Numbered from the stretch's first letter, positions 22,618 through 60,477 are shown. The stretch: 64,000 nucleotides of DNA from Thermoplasmata archaeon (GCA_041559015.1 JBFFED010000002.1:1027-65026), one strand, 5' to 3'. Notes: generated from the sequence alone by a model not told the origin. Numbers and translations are program-made.

Positions 22618-23091
22618 TCATTCCTCCACTTGTTCATAACCTTCCTTTCTGCCACCTGTTCCTCGCGTCTCCCCATGCTCCTGTGATCGAATGATCTCGA
22701 CAACGGCACGGCACTCTCTTTCGACGTCGTCGGTCGCGATTTCCCGCTCGCACAACACCCAACAGCTGTCGTGGTGGTCCAGGGAGTACCCTCTTTTTGC
22801 GAGGGTGTCGAGGACCTTGTTCACGCGTTCCAAGTCCGTCACCTTGGGCTGAGAGTCCTTCGCGAGGATACGCAGCGACACCTCTATCCGGAACGAGATC
22901 GAAGTGCCAGGGGCAGCGTTCACCACGAGCCCTAGTCGGAAATGCTCGCGGGCTGCCACAGCTCGGTATGCTTCGTGGTCCTCCGACGAGCGTGCCAGAG
23001 ATGCCAACGAGTCCAGGTCAGTCAGATTGAGGCCTTCACCCTTCGCTTCCGCCTCGCCCTGAGCCGTTCCTTCTGGTGGTCTGCCGGTCAT
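22618..23091 (-). CDS. Hypothetical protein
   Basis: 157 aa ORF coupled to downstream genes. Confidence 0.55.
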   Translation of the reverse strand: MTGRPPEGTAQGEAEAKGEGLNLTDLDSLASLARSSEDHEAYRAVAAREHFRLGLVVNAAPGTSISFRIEVSLRILAKDSQPKVTDLERVNKVLDTLAKRGYSLDHHDSCWVLCEREIATDDVERECRAVVEIIRSQEHGETRGTGGRKEGYEQVEE

Positions 23092-28048: not shown

Positions 28049-28567
28049 ATGAAATCGGTGTCGGCGCCAATGTACGAAGTCAGACCCATGACCAAGGACG
28101 ACCTGGATGAATGTTCGTCCCTTTCGAAAGCAGTGAGAGTCGACTCCTGGAATTCAATTGAGAAGTCCTTCTATCCCGAGGACAAGTTCGAGGAGGAACT
28201 CCTTCTGTACTCGCCGGAATCCCTGTCCAAGTTCATCGGATCGCAAGAGCGGTTCGCGTATGTGGCGGCCGATGAGGGGGAGATATGCGGGTGCGTCATC
28301 GGAAAGGTCGACGCATCCGTCGGCATCGCTGACATCGGCTGGATATGCGTTTCATCCAGCAAACGGGGGAAAGGGATTGCGGGCAAGCTGGTCGAAGCTG
28401 TGTCTGCCAAAGCCGTCGAATCTGGGTGCCACAAGGCAATCGCATTCACGATGAGAGACCTGCCTGACGCGAACGCGATGTATCGGCGTTACGGCTTCGA
28501 GAAGGAAGGGGATTTCAGGAGGCACTGGATGAAGATCGACTTCGTCCAGTACGGAAAGCAGCTCTAA
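28049..28567 (+). CDS. GNAT acetyltransferase
   Basis: WICVSSSKRGKGIAGKL motif A; MYRRYGF. Confidence 0.85.
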   Translation: MKSVSAPMYEVRPMTKDDLDECSSLSKAVRVDSWNSIEKSFYPEDKFEEELLLYSPESLSKFIGSQERFAYVAADEGEICGCVIGKVDASVGIADIGWICVSSSKRGKGIAGKLVEAVSAKAVESGCHKAIAFTMRDLPDANAMYRRYGFEKEGDFRRHWMKIDFVQYGKQL

Positions 28568-28580
28568 TCGGCCCTATTCT

Positions 28581-28922
28581 TCAACCCTGGGAAGGCCGTG
28601 GGATGACGCATATCACTCTCAGCAGTGAGCCGCTCGAGTTGAGGAACTGGTGCATCTCGTTGGGCTCGATGAAGATGGCGTCGCCCTGGACGATGTTCTC
28701 TTCGCGGTCCTTGAGCGCGACCTTGCCGCAACCTTCGACGACGAATACTTCATGCTCCCATTCGTGGGTGTGCCTCTCCGTGTGGCCACCAGGAGAGATA
28801 TCGATCAGGCGCATGTAGAAGTGCGGTGCGTCTAAGTCCTTCGCTATCAGCTGCTTGAAGTCAATGTCCTTCGTGCCGGTAGGCGTGATTCCCTTGATGT
28901 CCTTGTGGTTGACCTTTTTCAT
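28581..28922 (-). CDS. Cupin domain protein
   Basis: HTHEWEHEVFVVEG and PNEMHQF. Confidence 0.9.
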   Translation of the reverse strand: MKKVNHKDIKGITPTGTKDIDFKQLIAKDLDAPHFYMRLIDISPGGHTERHTHEWEHEVFVVEGCGKVALKDREENIVQGDAIFIEPNEMHQFLNSSGSLLRVICVIPRPSQG

Positions 28923-29043
28923 TGCGCTATCTCCGACGCGGGCATCGCCTTCCATTCCCTATGGATGTTGTGATGAAGTGACCCTTCTCCGATGTTGTGA
29001 TTGCTGGATTTGAGGAGGCTAGAAGCCAAGATGTGCATGAGTA

Positions 29044-29117
29044 TGGACCCGGGCGGACCTTGAACTCGCTCGAGCCCATCAAACATGGAATCAGTTCAAT
29101 CAGAAAGAAAACACACC
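29044..29117 (-). repeat. Degenerate tRNA-Ala 3'-end copy + conserved cassette end (att-like copy 1)
   Basis: tggacccgggcggacc-ttgaactcgctcgagcc, then 19 nt, then tcaatcagaaagaaaacacacc. Confidence 0.7.
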
Positions 29118-29234
29118 AAGGCGTCCGCAAACCTCTTCTCCTTCTTCATGTCATGTCCGCAACGATTGCATGGAACATGATATAGACTGAACCAGTACCT
29201 TCCTCACGGGCAACAAATATGAGGTGCAACAGCA

Positions 29235-29753
29235 ATGAGCATACTCGATCCGAACATGAAACCTGCACTCCTAGTGGTAGATGTCCAGAACGCATGGCTC
29301 GACAATACTGCCGAACTGAAGGAATCGGTTGAGAAGCGTCTCAATGTCATTAATGGGGGAATCGGGTGGTTCAGGAAGAACAAGCATCCAGTTATCGTGA
29401 TCTACCACGAGGAGCCGGAGATTGGAGTGATGCCCGGGACCAACGCCTTCGAGTTCTCGCGGCTCGTGCAGATAGAAGAGCAGGATATCAGGGTCACGAA
29501 GCGCTACTCCGACGCATTCAATAGGACCAACTTGGACTCAGTTCTCCGCAGCCTGGGCCGTGACACCGTGCTGATAGTGGGCCTGAGCGCGAGTGGCTGC
29601 GCGCTCGCCACCTACTTCGGTGCCAAGAACTATGACTACAACTCCTTCCTGGTGAAGGGTGGCGTGGCGTCTCACGACCAGGGGCATGTGAGGTTCGCAG
29701 AGGAGATCTGTGAGACCATGGCGGTGGACGAGTTCGACAGAAGACTCAGATGA
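29235..29753 (+). CDS. Isochorismatase/cysteine hydrolase
   Basis: LLVVDVQN, TKRYSDAF, GLSASGC. Confidence 0.85.
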   Translation: MSILDPNMKPALLVVDVQNAWLDNTAELKESVEKRLNVINGGIGWFRKNKHPVIVIYHEEPEIGVMPGTNAFEFSRLVQIEEQDIRVTKRYSDAFNRTNLDSVLRSLGRDTVLIVGLSASGCALATYFGAKNYDYNSFLVKGGVASHDQGHVRFAEEICETMAVDEFDRRLR

Positions 29754-29906
29754 TCAACTCGAGTGACACGGGATCTGCACACAGCAGGTCGCGGAGTGAT
29801 GAGCAGGGATTCGATTTTCAAGGGAGATGACTAGCCTTCGACTTTCTTGTGATTGCTGCAATGTATGCCATAGGTCACAGGAGATTGCGCATTCATTGAA
29901 AGGGTG

Positions 29907-30269
29907 TTACAGTTTCTTCCTGAAGACGCCCCAAGATACACCGTAAAGGTGCTTCTTGTCCTTCAGCGGAATGAATCCTGACCATTGAGCGATCATGCCT
30001 CTCTCAGCTGCCCTCCGCTTGAGAAATCCCGGAGTCACCTCATTGATGTGATCCAGTTTCTCTCTCAGCATTCCTTTTCCCTTTGGAGGAAATCCTTCTC
30101 CCGCTATGCAGCCGTCGCACCATCCCTCCAGCCAGAGGATCCTGTCTTTTCCCCTTATCTCAGCAAAGATCTCGCTTGGTACGGGAATGTCCGGTACGAG
30201 TTCGGCTACAAGGGCCAGGATATCGTCGCGTGTGGGTCGATTAGAGTCTTCCATTTCACGTCTTGTCAT
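29907..30269 (-). CDS. Hypothetical protein
   Basis: 120 aa ORF inside cassette A; no recognised motif. Confidence 0.55.
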   Translation of the reverse strand: MTRREMEDSNRPTRDDILALVAELVPDIPVPSEIFAEIRGKDRILWLEGWCDGCIAGEGFPPKGKGMLREKLDHINEVTPGFLKRRAAERGMIAQWSGFIPLKDKKHLYGVSWGVFRKKL

Positions 30270-30385
30270 GTTCAGTGACTATATCAAGATTGTCTGCTTG
30301 TTGAGCCGAGTTTTGACTTTGAACACTGGCCATCTTCAGTTTCGCGATTCAAGCACCGAGCCAGGCCTCTTCTCCAGTCTCGTCT

Positions 30386-30459
30386 GTGGACCGGGCGAGC
30401 ATTGAACTCGCTCGAGCCAGACAATCATAAAACCGTCTCAATTAAAAAGAAAATGCACC
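30386..30459 (-). repeat. tRNA-Ala 3'-end copy + conserved cassette end (att-like copy 2)
   Basis: 30386-30411 matches tRNA 36740-36765 at 24/26 nt; followed by the 17-mer extension, 19 nt, and tcaattaaaaagaaaatgcacc. Confidence 0.85.
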
Positions 30460-30869
30460 GGGGCATCCCCAAACCCATTGATCTTCTCATCTTACCTGTC
30501 GAAGGAGGCTGCATTGAGCTGGACTTGAACTTGGACATCTGGCTCGGTTCCAATCAGGGGGGGTTTGGTACGCGTATACTAGCCTTTTCCTCGCCTTTCC
30601 TCGCGAAATCAGAGGTTCAATTTGCGCGACGTGCAAACTCGGTTAACCGGCTCATTTCTATCGTCGCAAATTGGCACCGAGGCAGACCGTTTCTCGTGTT
30701 CGTCTTCCGGTCGGGGTGTTGGCCTCGAGTCGCATTTGAGTCGTCTGAGAATATGTCTGGTGGATCATCTGCACATGCACCGGTATGGGTCCGAGTATGA
30801 TGTGGCGTCACTAGAATCCCGCGAAGATTGGGCAGCTTCGCGAATCGACCGCAACAAGCGTCTCATTGT

Positions 30870-31730
30870 TCAGATGTAGAGTCCGCCGTTGATGTCAACT
30901 ACCTGCCCGGTGATATAGCCCGCCTCTGGAGACACTAGATACGTAACCGCAGATGCGATTTCTTCAGGTCTCCCCAGTCTGCCCATGGGTATCTGTGCCA
31001 GAATCTTCTGGATGATATTTGGCGGAACAGACTTCAACATATCGGTCCCGATGAATCCTGGGGCCACGGCATTTACGGTGACGCCTTTGTCCGCGAATTC
31101 CTTGGCAAGTGTCTGAGTCAATCCTATCATTCCTGCCTTTGAGGCTGCGTAGTTAGCCTGGCCACGATTGCCCATCCGACCAATCACAGAAGATATGTTC
31201 ACTATCCGGCCGTATTGCCGCTCAAGCATTCCATCAATGACAGCTTTGGTGCAATTGAAAGTTCCCGTGAGGTTGACGGAGATTACGTCGTCCCACATCT
31301 CTGAAGTCATCTTCACGAACGATTTGTCTTTGACTATTCCGGCGTTGTTTACCAGGATATCGATCTTGCCGAACTCAGCCACCGCCTTGTCCCGCATCTT
31401 GTTCACTTCGTCCATCTTTCCGACGTTGGCCTGGCATAAGATAGCACGTCTCCCCATCGACTCTATCTTTTCTCTGACTTCCTTTCCTTGTTCGACAGTA
31501 TCCATGATGTCAATCATGTTGATCAGTTCGTCAAGATCATCCATTCTATCTGTCTTATTTATGAAGTCGATGACGTCCGCAGCCTGGTCCTTGCGGCTCT
31601 GATAGTTCACGGCGACATCTGCTCCTTCTCCTGCGAGCTTGATGGCAATCGCCTGACCGATGCCTCTCGAGCCGCCTGTGACCAGCGCAACCTTTCCGTC
31701 TAGAGCCCCTGTTCTCTTAATGCCTTTCAC
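30870..31730 (-). CDS. phaB: Acetoacetyl-CoA reductase (SDR) with internal insertion
   Basis: TGGSRGIG, NNAG, GQANYAASKAG; in operon with phaC. Confidence 0.75.
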   Translation of the reverse strand: MKGIKRTGALDGKVALVTGGSRGIGQAIAIKLAGEGADVAVNYQSRKDQAADVIDFINKTDRMDDLDELINMIDIMDTVEQGKEVREKIESMGRRAILCQANVGKMDEVNKMRDKAVAEFGKIDILVNNAGIVKDKSFVKMTSEMWDDVISVNLTGTFNCTKAVIDGMLERQYGRIVNISSVIGRMGNRGQANYAASKAGMIGLTQTLAKEFADKGVTVNAVAPGFIGTDMLKSVPPNIIQKILAQIPMGRLGRPEEIASAVTYLVSPEAGYITGQVVDINGGLYI

Positions 31731-31749
31731 CCCTTGTCCTCGCGTGAGC

Positions 31750-32535
31750 CTAGACCACCAGTCCACCATCGACCAGCAATACGCACCCGTTCACGTACTT
31801 CGCCTCGTCCGACGCCAGATATAGGTTGGCATAGGCGACATCTATCGGATCGCCTAGCATGTTCAGAGGAGTCTTCTCCGCCATTCGGTCAAGGATCTTC
31901 TGAGGCACTGATGCAGTCATTGGGGTCTTTATGAATCCGGGAGCGATTGCATTGACTCTGATCCCCTTCCTTCCCAGTTCCTTGGACAGAGTCTTGGTCA
32001 TGCCAATCAAGCCGGCTTTGGCGGCCGAATAGTTGACCTGGCCGACATTGCCATAGACGCCTGAAACGGAGGACACATTGACAATCGAACCGCTTCCTCT
32101 CTGTAGCATGTGATCGGCGACTGCTTGAATGCAGTTGAACGCGCCCGTGAGGTCAACACGAATCACTTCGTCCCATTGCTCTTCTGTCATCTTCTGCAGC
32201 AGAGCGTCCCTGATTATGCCTGCGTTGTTGATCAGGATGTCAATCCTCCCAAATCTCTGGAGCGTCGCATCGACTGCTTTCCTCACTTCCTCTCTCTTGG
32301 TTATGTCTGCAGTAGCGCACAAGGTGTTCTTGATTTCCGTCTCCTTGGCGAATCCCATGTCACGATAGACCTTCTCTACATCTCCGGTGAAGATATCGAA
32401 GATGGCGACCTTCGCCCCCTCATTCAAGAAGAGTTTCGCTGTTTCCTTTCCGATTCCACTTCCGCCTCCAGTAATTACTGCAACCTTGTTCTCTAATCTC
32501 ATCTCGGGTTCCTCCTTCCCTCTGCTCTCATTCAT
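31750..32535 (-). CDS. Second PhaB/FabG-like SDR reductase
   Basis: TGGGSGIG, NNAG, GQVNYSAAKAG. Confidence 0.8.
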   Translation of the reverse strand: MNESRGKEEPEMRLENKVAVITGGGSGIGKETAKLFLNEGAKVAIFDIFTGDVEKVYRDMGFAKETEIKNTLCATADITKREEVRKAVDATLQRFGRIDILINNAGIIRDALLQKMTEEQWDEVIRVDLTGAFNCIQAVADHMLQRGSGSIVNVSSVSGVYGNVGQVNYSAAKAGLIGMTKTLSKELGRKGIRVNAIAPGFIKTPMTASVPQKILDRMAEKTPLNMLGDPIDVAYANLYLASDEAKYVNGCVLLVDGGLVV

Positions 32536-32551
32536 CTCTTTCGTTCCCGTC

Positions 32552-33637
32552 TCAGCTGCTCTGTTCGCCAGATCGCGCCCTCAGCCAGGAAGAGATCTTC
32601 GGGCAGACGTCCCTTTGTGATTTGCCGCCGACGAACATTCCAATATGTCCCGTCGGAAAGACCACGACTTCTTTATCTGTGCTCGCAACTGCATCGTTGA
32701 GCGGCTTGCTGGCAGCGATGGGAACTAGGTGGTCGTACTCCCCCATCACGTTCAGCAGAGGCATTGTGATGTTCTTGAGGTCGACCCTCTTCCCGTCCAG
32801 CATCATTTCGTTCTTTATCAGCAGGTTCTTCTGATAGCAGTCCTTGATGAACTGTCGATACATTTCCCCTGCCTGGTTAGGACTGTCAAAGATCCATTTT
32901 TCCATCCGCAGGAAGTTCTTCACGGCTTCCTCATTCTTGCGCCCGCTGTCTTCGTCATCCCCGTTGCTCTCAATCTTCTCAAAGAATATGACGTACTTGT
33001 CTATCAAGACTCTGAAGGGGTCGGTTAGTAGGAAGCCCGTGTTGAGTAGATTCCCAGGTACCATTCCGTATGCATCCACTATCCTGTCGGCATCTAGGCT
33101 CTTTGCCCAGACGTGGAGGAGCCCTTCATCGGTGTCGAAATCGACGGGTGTCACCATTGTTGCGAGGTTCTGGATCTTTTCCGGATGCAGCGATGAATAC
33201 ATCACCGAGAAGGTACCACCCTGGCAAACGCCGAACAGGGACACTTTCTCAGCTCCGGACAACTCCCTTATCTTCTCGACGGCGTTGTCGATATACCCGT
33301 TCACATAGTCATCGATGGTGAGATACCTGTCTATTCCTGACGGATATCCCCAGTCAATGATGTATACATCGAGCCCATCATCGAGCAGTTTCTTGACGAC
33401 ACTCTTGTCGGGCTGGAGATCAAGTATGTAGTGTCTGTTGACAAGAGCATAGACGATGAGCACGGGTACTGGATAAGGCTTCTTCACTACTGGGATGTAG
33501 TGAAGCAGCCTCATATCATCCTGTGTGTAGACGACCTCTGAAGGGGTCATCCCGACCGAGATCTCTGGTGCCTTGAGGAATAGGTCGAGCATCCTCATCG
33601 CCTTCCTGTTGTTCTCTATCAGTTCCGCGAATTCCAT
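32552..33637 (-). CDS. phaC: Class III PHA synthase catalytic subunit
   Basis: YALVNRHYILDLQPDKS, lipase-like box GVCQGG, EYDHLVP, PTGHIG, EKWIFDSP. Confidence 0.93.
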   Translation of the reverse strand: MEFAELIENNRKAMRMLDLFLKAPEISVGMTPSEVVYTQDDMRLLHYIPVVKKPYPVPVLIVYALVNRHYILDLQPDKSVVKKLLDDGLDVYIIDWGYPSGIDRYLTIDDYVNGYIDNAVEKIRELSGAEKVSLFGVCQGGTFSVMYSSLHPEKIQNLATMVTPVDFDTDEGLLHVWAKSLDADRIVDAYGMVPGNLLNTGFLLTDPFRVLIDKYVIFFEKIESNGDDEDSGRKNEEAVKNFLRMEKWIFDSPNQAGEMYRQFIKDCYQKNLLIKNEMMLDGKRVDLKNITMPLLNVMGEYDHLVPIAASKPLNDAVASTDKEVVVFPTGHIGMFVGGKSQRDVCPKISSWLRARSGEQSS

Positions 33638-33675
33638 AGTTGTCACTATCCGAAACGACACTCAGGCAGCGTCCG

Positions 33676-34224
33676 TCACTTCCTCGTTGCGCTCTTTCCC
33701 TGATCTCGAACCAACTCTTTCACTTGCTTCTTGAGCAGGTAGACCTCTTTGCTGAGGTCGTCCATCTCCGTCCGCGTGGGAAGATTGGCGGGTCTGAGGA
33801 AATTCTCCTCGATTAGGACCCTCGAGGACTTCTGAAAATCCATCGAATTGGATGTCAGTCTTGCCAGATCCGAGGCAAAGAAGCTAGATTTCAGAAACTT
33901 CTTGAATGTCTCACTGTATGTCTCCATCCAGAGGTCGTAGTAGCCCTTGTAGGAGGAAGGCGAGACGCCCTCTGCGATCCGCTTCTCAACCTCCTCCTGG
34001 GTTTTCTGGCTGGCTTCCATGAAGGCACTCTGGTAGTTCGCGATGGACTGCGCCCATGCAGCATGCATGTTGATTGTGGCCTCGAAGTTCTTCCTCAGCC
34101 TATCCACGCCTTCGCGAGATGGGCCCATGATGGGCATGTCTATGATTCTACCGTAGGTAGCCTCATAGGCCTTCAGCCAGTGCTCGAAGAAGTCATGGGA
34201 TGCTTGTAGATCCGAGCTCTCCAT
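33676..34224 (-). CDS. phaE: Class III PHA synthase subunit PhaE
   Basis: Directly upstream of phaC; YDLWMETY; C-terminal LPTRTEMDDLSKEVYLLKKQV coiled coil. Confidence 0.8.
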   Translation of the reverse strand: MESSDLQASHDFFEHWLKAYEATYGRIIDMPIMGPSREGVDRLRKNFEATINMHAAWAQSIANYQSAFMEASQKTQEEVEKRIAEGVSPSSYKGYYDLWMETYSETFKKFLKSSFFASDLARLTSNSMDFQKSSRVLIEENFLRPANLPTRTEMDDLSKEVYLLKKQVKELVRDQGKSATRK

Positions 34225-34226
34225 GA

Positions 34227-35369
34227 TCAAGTCGCCCTCGTCTGACCGAACTTCGCGTCCATCCACATCTTGGTTGCATTCGCATAGGTGTCCGCCTGAG
34301 CCCGTGCTGCCTTCTTGAGTGGGTCTATCAGTATCTTCATGGGCTCTACCGCGGGCATGAGTTCAAAGAAGTCTTTGTACGCCTTCTCATATGTATCGAA
34401 CCACTGCCCGTAGAACTCCCTGTAGGATTCCGCCTCGGTCGCGTTGGTGAGTAGATCCTTCATCTTCTCTGTAGTCTTCTCCAACACCGTCAACCAGGAA
34501 TTGTACAGCTCCGTACTGTTCTGCATTCCCTGGAGCATTTCATCGACCATCTCCTTCGACGGCTTCGTGATGTCGGTGGAGAACATCTTGGCGTATGTCT
34601 CTTTGTATGTATTCATCCACTGGTCGTAGAACTCTTTGTACTTCTCCGGACCTGCGTCGCCCTTTGACAGCTCGAAGAGCTTCTCTGAGAGCTCGAAAGT
34701 CAGCTTCTCCCAGGGGGTGTACATGTCCTTGTAGGACTCTCTCCACATCTTCGCCGCTTCTGCGAGGTTCGTGAGATACATGTTCGGCATGCCCGTGTAC
34801 GCCTCGAAGACCTCCTTCGTGTTCTTCGATGTCATCATGCCGAGAAACTCATCGAACATCTTCTCATAGGACTTGATCCACATTTCGTAGGAGTTCTTGT
34901 AGTCCTCAGGACTCACGCCACCCAAGAGCATCTTCTGAGTCCTCCTGGAGTTCTCCTCGAGTTCGGCGCTCCACGCCTTCATCAAATCCGTTGACTCCTG
35001 TGCACTCACGACGAGCATGTCCAGTGTCCTTCTGTCCGTCATTGCCTTCAGCATAGTTGCCTTCTGCATAGGATAGAGTCTGTCAAGTGTGTCCTGTTGT
35101 GTCTTGACCAGTTCCTCGTAGAACTCTCGGTATTTCTCTGGCGATGTCTCCCCTGAGAGCTGCACAGCCTTGTCAAAGAGCTTGCCTGTAGACTCGATCC
35201 AGGGGTTGTACAGGTCTGTGTAGGATTCCTGCCAGACTTTCGACATTGCGCTGTAGCTTTCGGTCCACATCTTGAAGGGGTTCTTCCGCTCCTCGGTCGA
35301 TCCCGTTCGGTTCGCCTTGCTCGTTTCTCCCTTCCTGCTCTTAACTGTCTCTGCTTTGTTCTTAGTCAT
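34227..35369 (-). CDS. PhaE-like helical repeat protein
   Basis: Four copies of (P/A)E-x-Y-x-(E/N)-(F/S)-Y-x2-(W/L)-x3-(Y/Q); first gene of the operon. Confidence 0.7.
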   Translation of the reverse strand: MTKNKAETVKSRKGETSKANRTGSTEERKNPFKMWTESYSAMSKVWQESYTDLYNPWIESTGKLFDKAVQLSGETSPEKYREFYEELVKTQQDTLDRLYPMQKATMLKAMTDRRTLDMLVVSAQESTDLMKAWSAELEENSRRTQKMLLGGVSPEDYKNSYEMWIKSYEKMFDEFLGMMTSKNTKEVFEAYTGMPNMYLTNLAEAAKMWRESYKDMYTPWEKLTFELSEKLFELSKGDAGPEKYKEFYDQWMNTYKETYAKMFSTDITKPSKEMVDEMLQGMQNSTELYNSWLTVLEKTTEKMKDLLTNATEAESYREFYGQWFDTYEKAYKDFFELMPAVEPMKILIDPLKKAARAQADTYANATKMWMDAKFGQTRAT

Positions 35370-35791
35370 ACTGGTTCGCCTCCACAAAACTCACAGACGA
35401 TTATTCAAACCGGGCGAATCCATGTAGCAAAAAAAGCTACGAAGTTCCTAACGGCGATCTAAAACGCATCCTGTTGAATTTCCGCGATTTCCAATTCAAG
35501 CTATAGTGTTGCCGCTTATAGTCTTTGGCTTCGTACCGAGCAGTCGTCGCAGAAATACGCTGGCAAGGTTTCCCCGGAACATGGGCAATCTCAGACCCAG
35601 GCAGCGAGATGTACTGATATGAGCTTGTGCTCCGGTTCAATGGCACGCCCTCAGAGATTCCATTGAGGCACAATCACTCGTCAAGCACTAGAATAGTCTG
35701 TCTCTGTCCATTTCGTCTTCTCACGATGAGATGGGTGTGAATCCGGATGCATAGCCGACTCTGGATAGGAAATCCCTGGTGAGCGGGCACG

Positions 35792-36589
35792 TCAGCGAAA
35801 CTTCTCAACGAGGGAAAGAAGTGCCGTCGCGAATTCTCTGGGCTGGTCAACATAGCCGACGTGCCCGCTCGGAAACATGTGCAAATCGGTTCTCAGTTGT
35901 GTCGCGAGCCATTTGGATGCGCAGAACAAGTGCATAGCCGTCTCTTCACCTGCCGCTATGAGGATGGGGACCTTGGATCCCCTAAGCGCTTCTGCGTTGG
36001 GCTTATAGGAGATGATCACCGGCATCTCCACAGAGAAAATGACATCCCCATTGTCGAAAGCGCGTCGCATCGTGCTCGGGTCCAGACCATTGATTGCCTC
36101 GTCCTCTTTCATCTCTGTGAACACTCGCAGTGCGTTGCGGGGGCCTCCCTTCGCTACCTTGGCTTTCCAGAAGTCTGCCAGGTCATGAGCTTGATAGAGA
36201 AGCGGCATAAGCGGCGGTTCGTGCGCGATTGCCCCCCGAACTGACAGCGGGTGGCGAACGATGAGCTCGAGCAAGATCATCGCTCCGAAACTGTTGCCGA
36301 AGACGATGGCTGGACTTAGGCGCAAAGTGGACAGCAATTCCGCTGCATCATCCGCCTGCTCCGTAACCGAAGTCGACGTCCAGCCTTCTGGGCGAGGGCT
36401 TCGAGAATTTGCGCGGCGATCATACGTAATGACCGTGAACTGCTCGGCGAGGAGCTCCGCGAGCGGCTCGAACCATCCTGCGTCTCCCGTGAGGCCCATG
36501 ATCAGTAGAAGGGGCGGTCCGAAACCTCGTATCTCGTAGTAGATGTGCGTCCCATTGACCTCGGCGAGCCCATGCTTCATCGTCGTCAT
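35792..36589 (-). CDS. Alpha/beta hydrolase
   Basis: GNSFG nucleophile elbow, YDRRANSRS, PSGHVGY. Confidence 0.85.
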   Translation of the reverse strand: MTTMKHGLAEVNGTHIYYEIRGFGPPLLLIMGLTGDAGWFEPLAELLAEQFTVITYDRRANSRSPRPEGWTSTSVTEQADDAAELLSTLRLSPAIVFGNSFGAMILLELIVRHPLSVRGAIAHEPPLMPLLYQAHDLADFWKAKVAKGGPRNALRVFTEMKEDEAINGLDPSTMRRAFDNGDVIFSVEMPVIISYKPNAEALRGSKVPILIAAGEETAMHLFCASKWLATQLRTDLHMFPSGHVGYVDQPREFATALLSLVEKFR

Positions 36590-36737
36590 CCCTCTGGCTG
36601 ATTCGCTTCCGTTCACTTAATGCATTCTCCAGTGTGTTGAGCCGTGGTTGAACCGGAGACACTGGCTGTCTCTCAATCCGGCGATTGTCACACGTCCGAA
36701 TCTCTTCTAACGCCCCTATGGCTTCTTCCGAGACTAA

Positions 36738-36812
36738 TGGTGGACCGGGCGAGATTTGAACTCGCGACCTCTCGCATGCCAAGCGAGCGATCTGCCGCTG
36801 ATCTACCGGCCC
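36738..36812 (-). tRNA. tRNA-Ala(GGC), CCA encoded
   Basis: Cloverleaf GGGCCGG/CCGGTCC with G3-U70; anticodon arm CTCGC-TTGGCAT-GCGAG; T arm GCGAG-TTCAAAT-CTCGC. Confidence 0.97.
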
Positions 36813-59975: not shown

Positions 59976-60464
59976 TCAGGCCGAAACCTGCCTGAACCCC
60001 CGGGTGTAAAGAAGGAACGAATCCACAACAAGGGCAGCCCCAAGCACTGCGATAAGAGTCAACCCCAAGTCGAACGCGCTCAGGTCGACGAGCTGGTTGA
60101 CGATCCCTAGGAATATCAAGTAGGAGCCTGCTATGACCTCCACAGCGATGTACAGGGCGGGCAGTACCGAGGGAGAGGGAGGGGATCGAATAATCCATTC
60201 ACGACTGCTGCGGAACGATGCAATCGTGAGAACCACTCCGAAGATGATAGCCACGGACGCGTACAGTATCGCGTCTTCGATTAGTCCAGACCCCAGAGCA
60301 ATCATGCCGGCCCCGAGGATGAGTAGCAGGAAAGTGGCAATTGCAGGATTGTCCACGACGTCAAACAATCGAGGCTTCCTTATAACGATTCTGGTATTGC
60401 CCCTTGATGGGCGACTACTTACTGACAATGGAATTCGCGAACACTCTGGCTCGAGCGAGTTCAA
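59976..60464 (-). CDS. Hypothetical 4-TM protein (accessory; true start probably downstream)
   Basis: Four hydrophobic segments; the track start lies inside the att-like motif. Confidence 0.5.
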   Translation of the reverse strand: MNSLEPECSRIPLSVSSRPSRGNTRIVIRKPRLFDVVDNPAIATFLLLILGAGMIALGSGLIEDAILYASVAIIFGVVLTIASFRSSREWIIRSPPSPSVLPALYIAVEVIAGSYLIFLGIVNQLVDLSAFDLGLTLIAVLGAALVVDSFLLYTRGFRQVSA

Positions 60465-60477
60465 TGCTCGCCTGGTC
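60445..60477 (+). repeat. att-like copy 3, inverted relative to copies 1-2, over a stop codon
   Basis: Reverse complement gaccaggcgagcattgaactcgctcgagccaga matches 30389-30421 at 32/33 nt. Confidence 0.85.

Follow-up and report, generated by a model that had tools for sequence, protein, structure and literature searches.

Att-ended, integrase-less cassettes stacked at a tRNA-Ala(GGC) gene of a Thermoplasmata archaeon, probably assembled by a Xer-like integrase

Cis-mobilizable elements (CIMEs) and the tandem accretion of ICESt1/ICESt3-type islands were reportedly described in Streptococcus by Pavlovic in 2004 and Bellanger in 2011. CIMEs are flanked by attachment (att) sites and lack an integrase of their own, and related elements accumulate in tandem at one target (PMC5704250, PMC7563491). 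Tycheposons of Prochlorococcus carry integrase and replication modules and span 10-20 kb, and their describers regard most of the remaining island material as further DNA gained by transfer that lacks clear borders (Hackl et al., bioRxiv 10.1101/2020.12.28.424599). In archaea, class II non-suicidal integrases target the 3' part of tRNA genes, integration leaves the integrase gene itself unsplit, and tandem integrations are known; arrays of integrase-less cargo cassettes are not described in the review of archaeal tyrosine recombinases that covers these elements (PMC8371274). Here we report on positions 29,044 to 36,812 of a stretch of 64,000 nucleotides (nt) (GCA_041559015.1, JBFFED010000002.1:1027-65026; hereafter the window) from the metagenome-assembled genome of a Thermoplasmata archaeon, an uncultured soil or sediment organism (1.78 Mb, 83 contigs, 88% complete). 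The closest described systems appear to be CIMEs with tandem accretion and tycheposon islands, with integrons resembling the locus by analogy only. We consider it probable, at roughly 70%, that this region is a two-cassette array of att-ended, integrase-less elements on tRNA-Ala(GGC), built and reshuffled by a Xer-like integrase, and that most cassettes of this kind are non-autonomous.

The array is anchored on the tRNA-Ala(GGC) gene at 36738-36812 on the minus strand (ARAGORN; Rfam tRNA, 66 bits), the presumptive attB site, and the last ~26 nt of this gene, comprising the T arm and the 3' acceptor strand, are the likely recombination core. This 3' end (36740-36765) is repeated at 30386-30411, where 24 of 26 positions (92%) are identical, and again at 29044-29069 in a degenerate form with a 1-nt indel. 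Both copies had been reported in an earlier note made from the sequence alone, and their coordinates and counts hold, as do the further matches that it described: both copies run on into an exact 17-mer, TTGAACTCGCTCGAGCC (29060 and 30402), and 19 nt past it direct reading of the sequence finds an A-rich block matching at 18 of 22 positions. In the window the tRNA 3'-end pattern has two matches at up to three mismatches (0 expected), and TTGAACTCGCTCGAGCC has five at the same threshold against 0.38 expected, a number reached in none of 100 shuffles. The two copies and their extensions, units U1 and U2, align over 97 nt at 73%, and over ~140 nt once other genome copies are included. Across ~28500-35500 the GC content drops to 0.51-0.53, compared with 0.58-0.62 outside; the earlier note had proposed to compute GC across the borders.

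Starting from the tRNA, the locus reads as follows: tRNA-Ala, a repeat that we call b, an operon for polyhydroxyalkanoate (PHA) synthesis, a second b, U2, a third b, a 120-amino acid (aa) open reading frame (ORF) with an isochorismatase gene, U1, and a flank that begins ACTCATGCAC. The junction between tRNA and PHA operon (36627-36737) was assigned by nhmmer and class comparison as a copy of b, and its ~35 nt nearest the tRNA belong to a class of proximal cassette ends (class iii, ..TCTCGGAAGAAGCCATAGGGG) described below. Cassette E1 has its cargo at 30621-36626, with all genes on the minus strand and assigned with Pfam: an alpha/beta hydrolase (35792-36616), a 78-aa ORF that is listed between this gene and the next, a PhaE-like repeat protein (34227-35387), PhaE (33676-34266), PhaC (32552-33661) and two SDR reductases (31750-32535 and 30870-31769). 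The second b (30505-30620; nhmmer, alignment) lies immediately after U2 (30386-30504, minus strand, E = 7.5e-25), which forms the distal end of E1 and whose core carries the T-loop variant TG of the element. The third b (30292-30385; direct repeat D13, nhmmer) lies at the tRNA-proximal end of cassette E2, the cargo of which (29191-30291) comprises the 120-aa ORF without a family match (29907-30269, minus strand) and the isochorismatase-family hydrolase (29235-29753, plus strand), both from the Pfam search. Its distal end is U1 (29044-29190, minus strand, E = 2.2e-19), with the degenerate tRNA copy and an arm. U1 is the last recognizable junction of the window array, and the ACTCATGCAC flank beyond it resembles the native flank of empty sites.

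Pfam found only metabolic genes between the repeats. No recombinase was found between 29044 and 36738, either with Pfam or in a six-frame search of the genome with PF00589, in agreement with the earlier note, which had described the two cargoes as unrelated and free of a recombinase; replication genes were not found in the window. The PHA region is 86.8% identical over 5.8 kb to positions 952527-958333 of a related complete genome, G001, where it does not lie at tRNA-Ala, and the homology stops inside the junction at 36627-36737. (Throughout, G, L and C numbers denote related genomes, loci, and contigs of the window's own genome.) PhaC occurs in only 2 of the 16 genomes of the genus. Because the G001 copy lies elsewhere and PhaC is this rare, we regard the PHA block as accessory and relocated. 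The PhaE-like protein of this block (386 aa), encoded directly upstream of PhaE, carries an internal repeat, present four times, that is related to the N-terminal part of PhaE and was seen as direct repeats D1, D2 and D4; it matches PF09712 weakly, and its G001 counterpart is 79% identical.

A search for the 17-mer and the unit detected at least eight full units of 100-140 nt in the own genome (two on C2, four on C28, one each on C6 and C31), besides those on C1 and C10 and truncated copies. Their left edge is exactly the tRNA 3' end. The unit also occurs in other members of the genus and family, where it mostly forms co-oriented rows downstream of tRNA-Ala(GGC); the metagenome-assembled genomes are incomplete. 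The pooled set comprised 75 loci from related Thermoplasmata genomes and metagenomes, with 64 loci added by a pattern scan of public metagenomes; it includes 19 tRNA-Ala genes, and 139 units are co-oriented with the tRNA while one is inverted. These loci hold 83 cassettes that are bounded on both sides, of 113-9541 nt (median 1870 nt). Filled sites carry one to six of them, six of the 83 are "empty" tandems of 113-188 nt, many have a single gene, and genes occur in both orientations. With conserved ends and unrelated cargo throughout, this establishes at the level of sequence the cassette anatomy and the family, accumulating at a tRNA gene, that the earlier note had proposed from the two copies in the window.

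On the other side of the tRNA gene, the order purF, CxxC protein, amidohydrolase is kept in all relatives examined, and the downstream side is variable: sites in relatives are empty, differently filled or differently ordered. In G021, G022 and G024, three relatives from other genera, tRNA-Ala has no unit within 8 kb. Within the own genome, the four units on C28 (C28:12396-24251, L056/L057) are co-oriented, have Ala(GGC)-type cores, and enclose genes for a 1104-aa unknown protein, an SDR, an 809-aa surface protein with immunoglobulin-like domains and a 4Fe-4S protein. Neither a tRNA nor an integrase was found on this contig, which may come from a second strain, from a broken assembly or from an array that became detached.

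When junctions were aligned on the end of the core, conservation was confined to positions -95 to 0. The arm of ~95 nt consists of the blocks GGGTTTGGGGACGCC, GGTGCAATT, GATTGAACCGA and TGTCTGGCT, followed by the core, the last 14 nt of which are nearly invariant; nothing downstream of the core is universally conserved among the aligned junctions. The tRNA-proximal cassette ends fall instead into several classes. Class i, ACTCACGCATAGCCAGACA, is the 3' end of an integrase gene, and its AGCCAGACA is an inverted repeat of arm block TGTCTGGCT. Class ii, TGGCTTTGTTTTTCGACCCGAATTGAC.., of ~79 nt, is found in integrase-less elements with unrelated cargo and is not derived from an integrase. Class iii includes the tRNA-proximal end of the PHA cassette in the window, and there are others. 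Within the core, the T loop reads AAT in every tRNA and TG, GG or TA, never AAT, in distal cores, from which we infer a crossover 3' of the T loop, probably within CTCGCCCGGTCCA. The sites do not form attC-like folds. Unit folding gave z-scores of -1.8 to +0.7 on both strands, with no excess over shuffles, and the only consistent hairpin is the T arm, besides a short stem, GAGACA/TGTCTC, in the repeat at 36627-36737. An Rfam search returned no match besides the tRNA itself. We therefore rejected a non-coding RNA or an attC-like structure as an identity for the unit, on the basis of the Rfam result and the absence of excess folding.

Arm subfamilies pair with matching tRNA genes. On C1 (53598-55388), tRNA-Arg(TCG) is followed by a clostripain-family C11 peptidase gene and then by a unit with a homologous arm and an Arg-derived core, a pairing that would follow if arm and integrase families had diverged toward different tRNAs. 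On C31 (22033-22968), tRNA-Leu(CAG) is followed by a flavodoxin gene and a unit; comparison of its core with the tRNA was not convincing, and we did not accept a Leu-derived core. The unit behind tRNA-Pro on C10 was likewise rejected as a simple Pro-specific site, as it carries an Arg-type core.

The earlier note had also described a right-end motif common to both cassettes. The motif is real at 30299 and 36635 (direct repeat D13, 37 nt at 70%; nhmmer), but it is not a general cassette end. It is part of b, a separate dispersed intergenic repeat with at least nine copies in G001:936-970 kb alone, which lie in either orientation and at gene boundaries that are convergent, divergent or tandem, including one upstream of the G001 PHA operon. 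We therefore rejected b as the other arm of the cassette, since it is dispersed at gene boundaries in all contexts. Profile searches found no link between b and the unit, whereas pairwise Smith-Waterman comparison gave a weak excess in the same orientation; b is possibly a decayed unit. In the 34-kb stretch G001:936000-970000 (L054/L055), the b copies to the left of 949 kb are on the minus strand and those to the right of 958 kb are mostly on the plus strand; a unit (949274-949349) also occurs within this b-rich stretch around the PHA operon. The stretch may represent two old arrays in facing orientation.

Comparison of related loci revealed gain or loss of cassettes at exact core boundaries. 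Behind tRNA-Ala, the complete chromosome of G001 has two elements and G003 has one. The distal G001 element, an Opp/Dpp transporter operon, is 96% identical to the G003 element and has the same outer flank. The proximal element, Ea, is extra with respect to G003: it is 9.5 kb long, integrase-less, has intact ends and carries only metabolic genes (molybdenum oxidoreductase, metallophosphoesterase, ECF transporter and kinase). Ea shares with the neighboring element only its ends, ~79 nt at one and ~93 nt at the other. Reassortment was seen as the same cassette beside different neighbors, with family F7 in three contexts, F4 at 99.2% identity, and F19, F5 and F2-F3 likewise; families were defined by single-linkage megablast clustering, and the large family F0 may be lumped.

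Transfer between divergent hosts is seen in the pair L092 and L124. A 3458-nt block comprising three cassettes (flavodoxins, GNAT, and two agmatine deiminases with a CN-hydrolase), in which no integrase was found, has 99.9% identity between these loci, whereas identity falls to 78.8% on the purF/tRNA side. What they share starts 25-27 nt before the first cassette, which corresponds to the 26-nt tRNA-derived core. This first shared cassette abuts the tRNA in L124 and lies behind two other cassettes in L092. Judged by these alignments, the pair is hard to explain unless an integrase-less block passed recently between divergent hosts, with a core as one of its endpoints. In the anticodon stem of the tRNA-Ala(GGC) genes themselves, one locus has C-G where the other has T-A, a compensatory difference that serves as a marker of host versus cassette lineage.

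The earlier note suggested that a tyrosine recombinase might be encoded elsewhere in the genome. In the own genome, the six-frame PF00589 search recovered only XerA (C32) and fragments (C52, C46 and C10), but a cognate integrase was identified in relatives. Only three arrays (G010, L088 and L109) carry an intact integrase, always adjacent to the tRNA with the integrase element beside cassettes; this amounts to 3 of the 83 cassettes, none at a distal position. In G010 the gene encodes a 396-aa tyrosine recombinase and runs opposite to the tRNA, its stop codon lying 3 nt away from the end of the tRNA; L088 and L109 have orthologues in this position, at 92% and 86% identity. The G010-type integrase is Xer-like, with its best similarity to XerA/XerD-like recombinases, and scores below every curated cut-off. 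Against TIGR02249 it reaches 40 bits, where the cut-off is 265 bits, so it is not an integron integrase. Paralogues at 32-40% identity are common in these genomes, and C-terminal integrase remnants lie beside tRNA genes in L128, G018 and G009 and in the own genome on C10 and C46. Apart from the integrase module and the unit, the three integrase-bearing elements have nothing in common; their other genes are unrelated cargo, among them those for an MmeI-like restriction-modification enzyme, an SPL-like protein and unknown proteins. The three elements examined showed no replication or virion genes, and neither the integrase nor an attP was found on viral contigs.

Taken with the described systems, the arrays resemble CIMEs in that the window cassettes are att-bounded without recombination or transfer genes inside, and, by analogy, in that they may be mobilized through an integrase-bearing neighbor. 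They differ in having an archaeal host and no conjugation module, in cassettes that are far smaller, with a median of 1.9 kb and commonly a single gene, and that reach far higher numbers in one array (up to 6), in an arm conserved over more than 100 junctions, and in that integrase-bearing members are tiny, consisting of the integrase and cargo. Tycheposon islands likewise have tyrosine-recombinase elements at few tRNA genes, where newcomers push older elements inward into the island, together with scattered partial tRNAs, integrase fragments and niche-adaptive cargo. The units described here differ from these in being sharply bounded, mostly integrase-less, mostly 1-3 kb and equipped with a conserved arm and a Xer-like archaeal integrase, and the combination of recombinase and replication module was found neither in the integrase-bearing elements examined nor in the window. 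The archaeal integrative elements described so far are viruses or plasmids and carry genes for replication or for virions, unlike these arrays (PMC8371274). As in tRNA islands of the Islander type, there is an intact tRNA with a displaced 3' copy and variable occupancy among relatives; an integrase inside the element is present in G010, L088 and L109 but was not found between 29044 and 36738. In contrast to IMEX, which use the host Xer at dif, the target is the tRNA-Ala 3' end, and the host XerA is a separate gene.

The earlier note likened the locus to an integron array. Integrons and the clusters of attC sites lacking integron integrases (CALINs), which are known from archaea too (Ghaly et al., 10.1101/2022.02.06.479319), also have small, mostly one-gene cassettes at one insertion point, the same cassette with different neighbors, and most arrays without an adjacent integrase. 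This part of the comparison stands, through the arrays and the reassortment of the families named above. However, the site here is a tRNA 3' end with a double-stranded-type arm and no folded attC, the integrase is not IntI and, where present, behaves as a cassette itself, and there is no common promoter (Pc), because cassette genes lie in both orientations. By analogy the window array may work somewhat like an integron, but the defining attC and IntI are lacking.

We propose the following mechanism. A cassette, read in the direction of the tRNA, consists of a variable proximal end, cargo, the ~95-nt arm and a copy of the last 26 nt of the tRNA. A site-specific Xer-like tyrosine integrase would recombine a circular form, in which arm, core and proximal end are joined, with the tRNA 3' end. 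Integration would regenerate the tRNA and push older cassettes outward, and recombination between any two cores could excise one or several cassettes. A minority of elements would encode the integrase, with the 3' end of its gene abutting the tRNA, and the other cassettes, including both in the window, would rely on an integrase element that shares their cell, whether the enzyme acts in trans or they accrete beside that element. The catalytic step, the crossover position and the supply of integrase in trans are the parts of this scheme that we deduce from sequence patterns.

Several observations weigh against this explanation. No intact cognate integrase is found in the own genome, at 88% completeness, and therefore the window array may be immobile at present; none is found in the complete genome G001 either, where the best paralogue is 39% identical. 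The C28 array has Ala-type cores and no tRNA on its contig. Homologous recombination could likewise act on units of ~100 nt that are 75-90% identical. Finally, in roughly one junction in four the 3' end of the integrase gene supplies the first 10-20 nt (ACTCAC.., continuing ..ATAGCCAGACA in about nine), so in these cases integrase genes could have been deleted rather than never present; other junctions have unrelated conserved proximal ends.

The junctions with integrase-gene sequence bear on the most serious alternative, in which cassettes are dead scars of autonomous elements that lost the integrase after integration and never moved without their own. The C-terminal remnants beside tRNAs and the presence of only fragments in the own genome would fit such decay, and loss of the integrase after integration is known for archaeal integrated plasmids (PMC8371274). 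We nevertheless consider decay alone unlikely. It would have to account for an intact integrase in so few cassettes, all of them tRNA-adjacent, and for the class ii proximal end, which is not integrase-derived and is common to integrase-less elements with unrelated cargo. Ea has intact ends and metabolic genes only. The block shared by L092 and L124, nearly identical in hosts that are 79% identical and at different array positions, is also too recent for repeated clean deletions.

Less probable still is that the units act as portable homology, and that present-day shuffling is carried out by general recombination of the host after DNA uptake, without a site-specific enzyme. The mutual identity of the units would permit this, shared blocks often extend 89-105 nt into the preceding unit, and exchange of modules between tandem integrated archaeal elements through homologous recombination has been proposed (PMC8371274). 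However, the L092/L124 block starts at the core, with no arm on the tRNA side, the T-loop pattern fits a fixed crossover point, and orientation is strict (139 to 1). Homologous recombination through units could contribute alongside the site-specific integration that we favor. That the unit is a dispersed repeat unrelated to recombination, whether a tRNA-derived element like a miniature inverted-repeat transposable element or short interspersed element, a small RNA gene (an acceptor/T-arm minihelix behind a TATA-like TTTTTAAT) or a terminator module, is scarcely credible: there are at least eight copies per genome, and in the arm, followed in the tRNA direction, a GC-rich stretch precedes a T-rich tract and a TATA-like box lies ~24 nt upstream of the core, but the copies have neither an Rfam match besides tRNA nor folding beyond shuffles, are co-oriented with the tRNA and clustered behind it rather than scattered, have exactly the tRNA 3' end as their boundary, and coincide at their cores with the endpoints of presence/absence polymorphism.

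Two further features of the window were noted. A third exact copy of TTGAACTCGCTCGAGCC, absent from the earlier list (60448-60464, minus strand), lies in a truncated inverted unit at 60445-60477 (plus strand), which consists of the core and 9 nt of arm and is identical to 30389-30421 at 32 of 33 positions. It supplies the last five codons and the stop codon of a minus-strand Fe-S/PAPS-reductase-like gene, and may be a secondary-site scar or a relic of inversion between cores. The tRNA-Lys(TTT) gene at 22766-22849 was called at 84 nt with the anticodon at position 31, which exceeds the standard tRNA length; this may reflect an intron or an imprecise call.

Accessory-gene acquisition in uncultured archaea is poorly known, and to our knowledge neither conjugation nor transformation systems have been described in these Thermoplasmata. 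A wider interpretation, which we put forward tentatively and at a little less than even odds, is that tRNA 3' ends in soil and sediment Thermoplasmata support a general, integron-like form of gene capture. Cassettes with arm and core would be inserted, excised, reshuffled and passed between species by Xer-like integrase paralogues dedicated to individual tRNAs (Ala, Arg, probably Leu, and others), with the integrase carried on a few "driver" cassettes, and this would be a main route by which accessory genes are obtained. If so, the cargo gained in this way would include PHA synthesis, transporters, polyamine enzymes and restriction-modification systems, and patchy traits would be explained, such as the PHA operon, which lies at a different locus in each of the two genomes that have it. 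The arm and core would provide a simple marker for mining the mobile gene pool in archaeal metagenomes, and the compact integrase/att pair might be developed for use in archaeal genetics. This would also make the arrays a third independent case, after integrons and CIME/tycheposon islands, of recombinase-less cassettes arrayed with only a rare recombinase.

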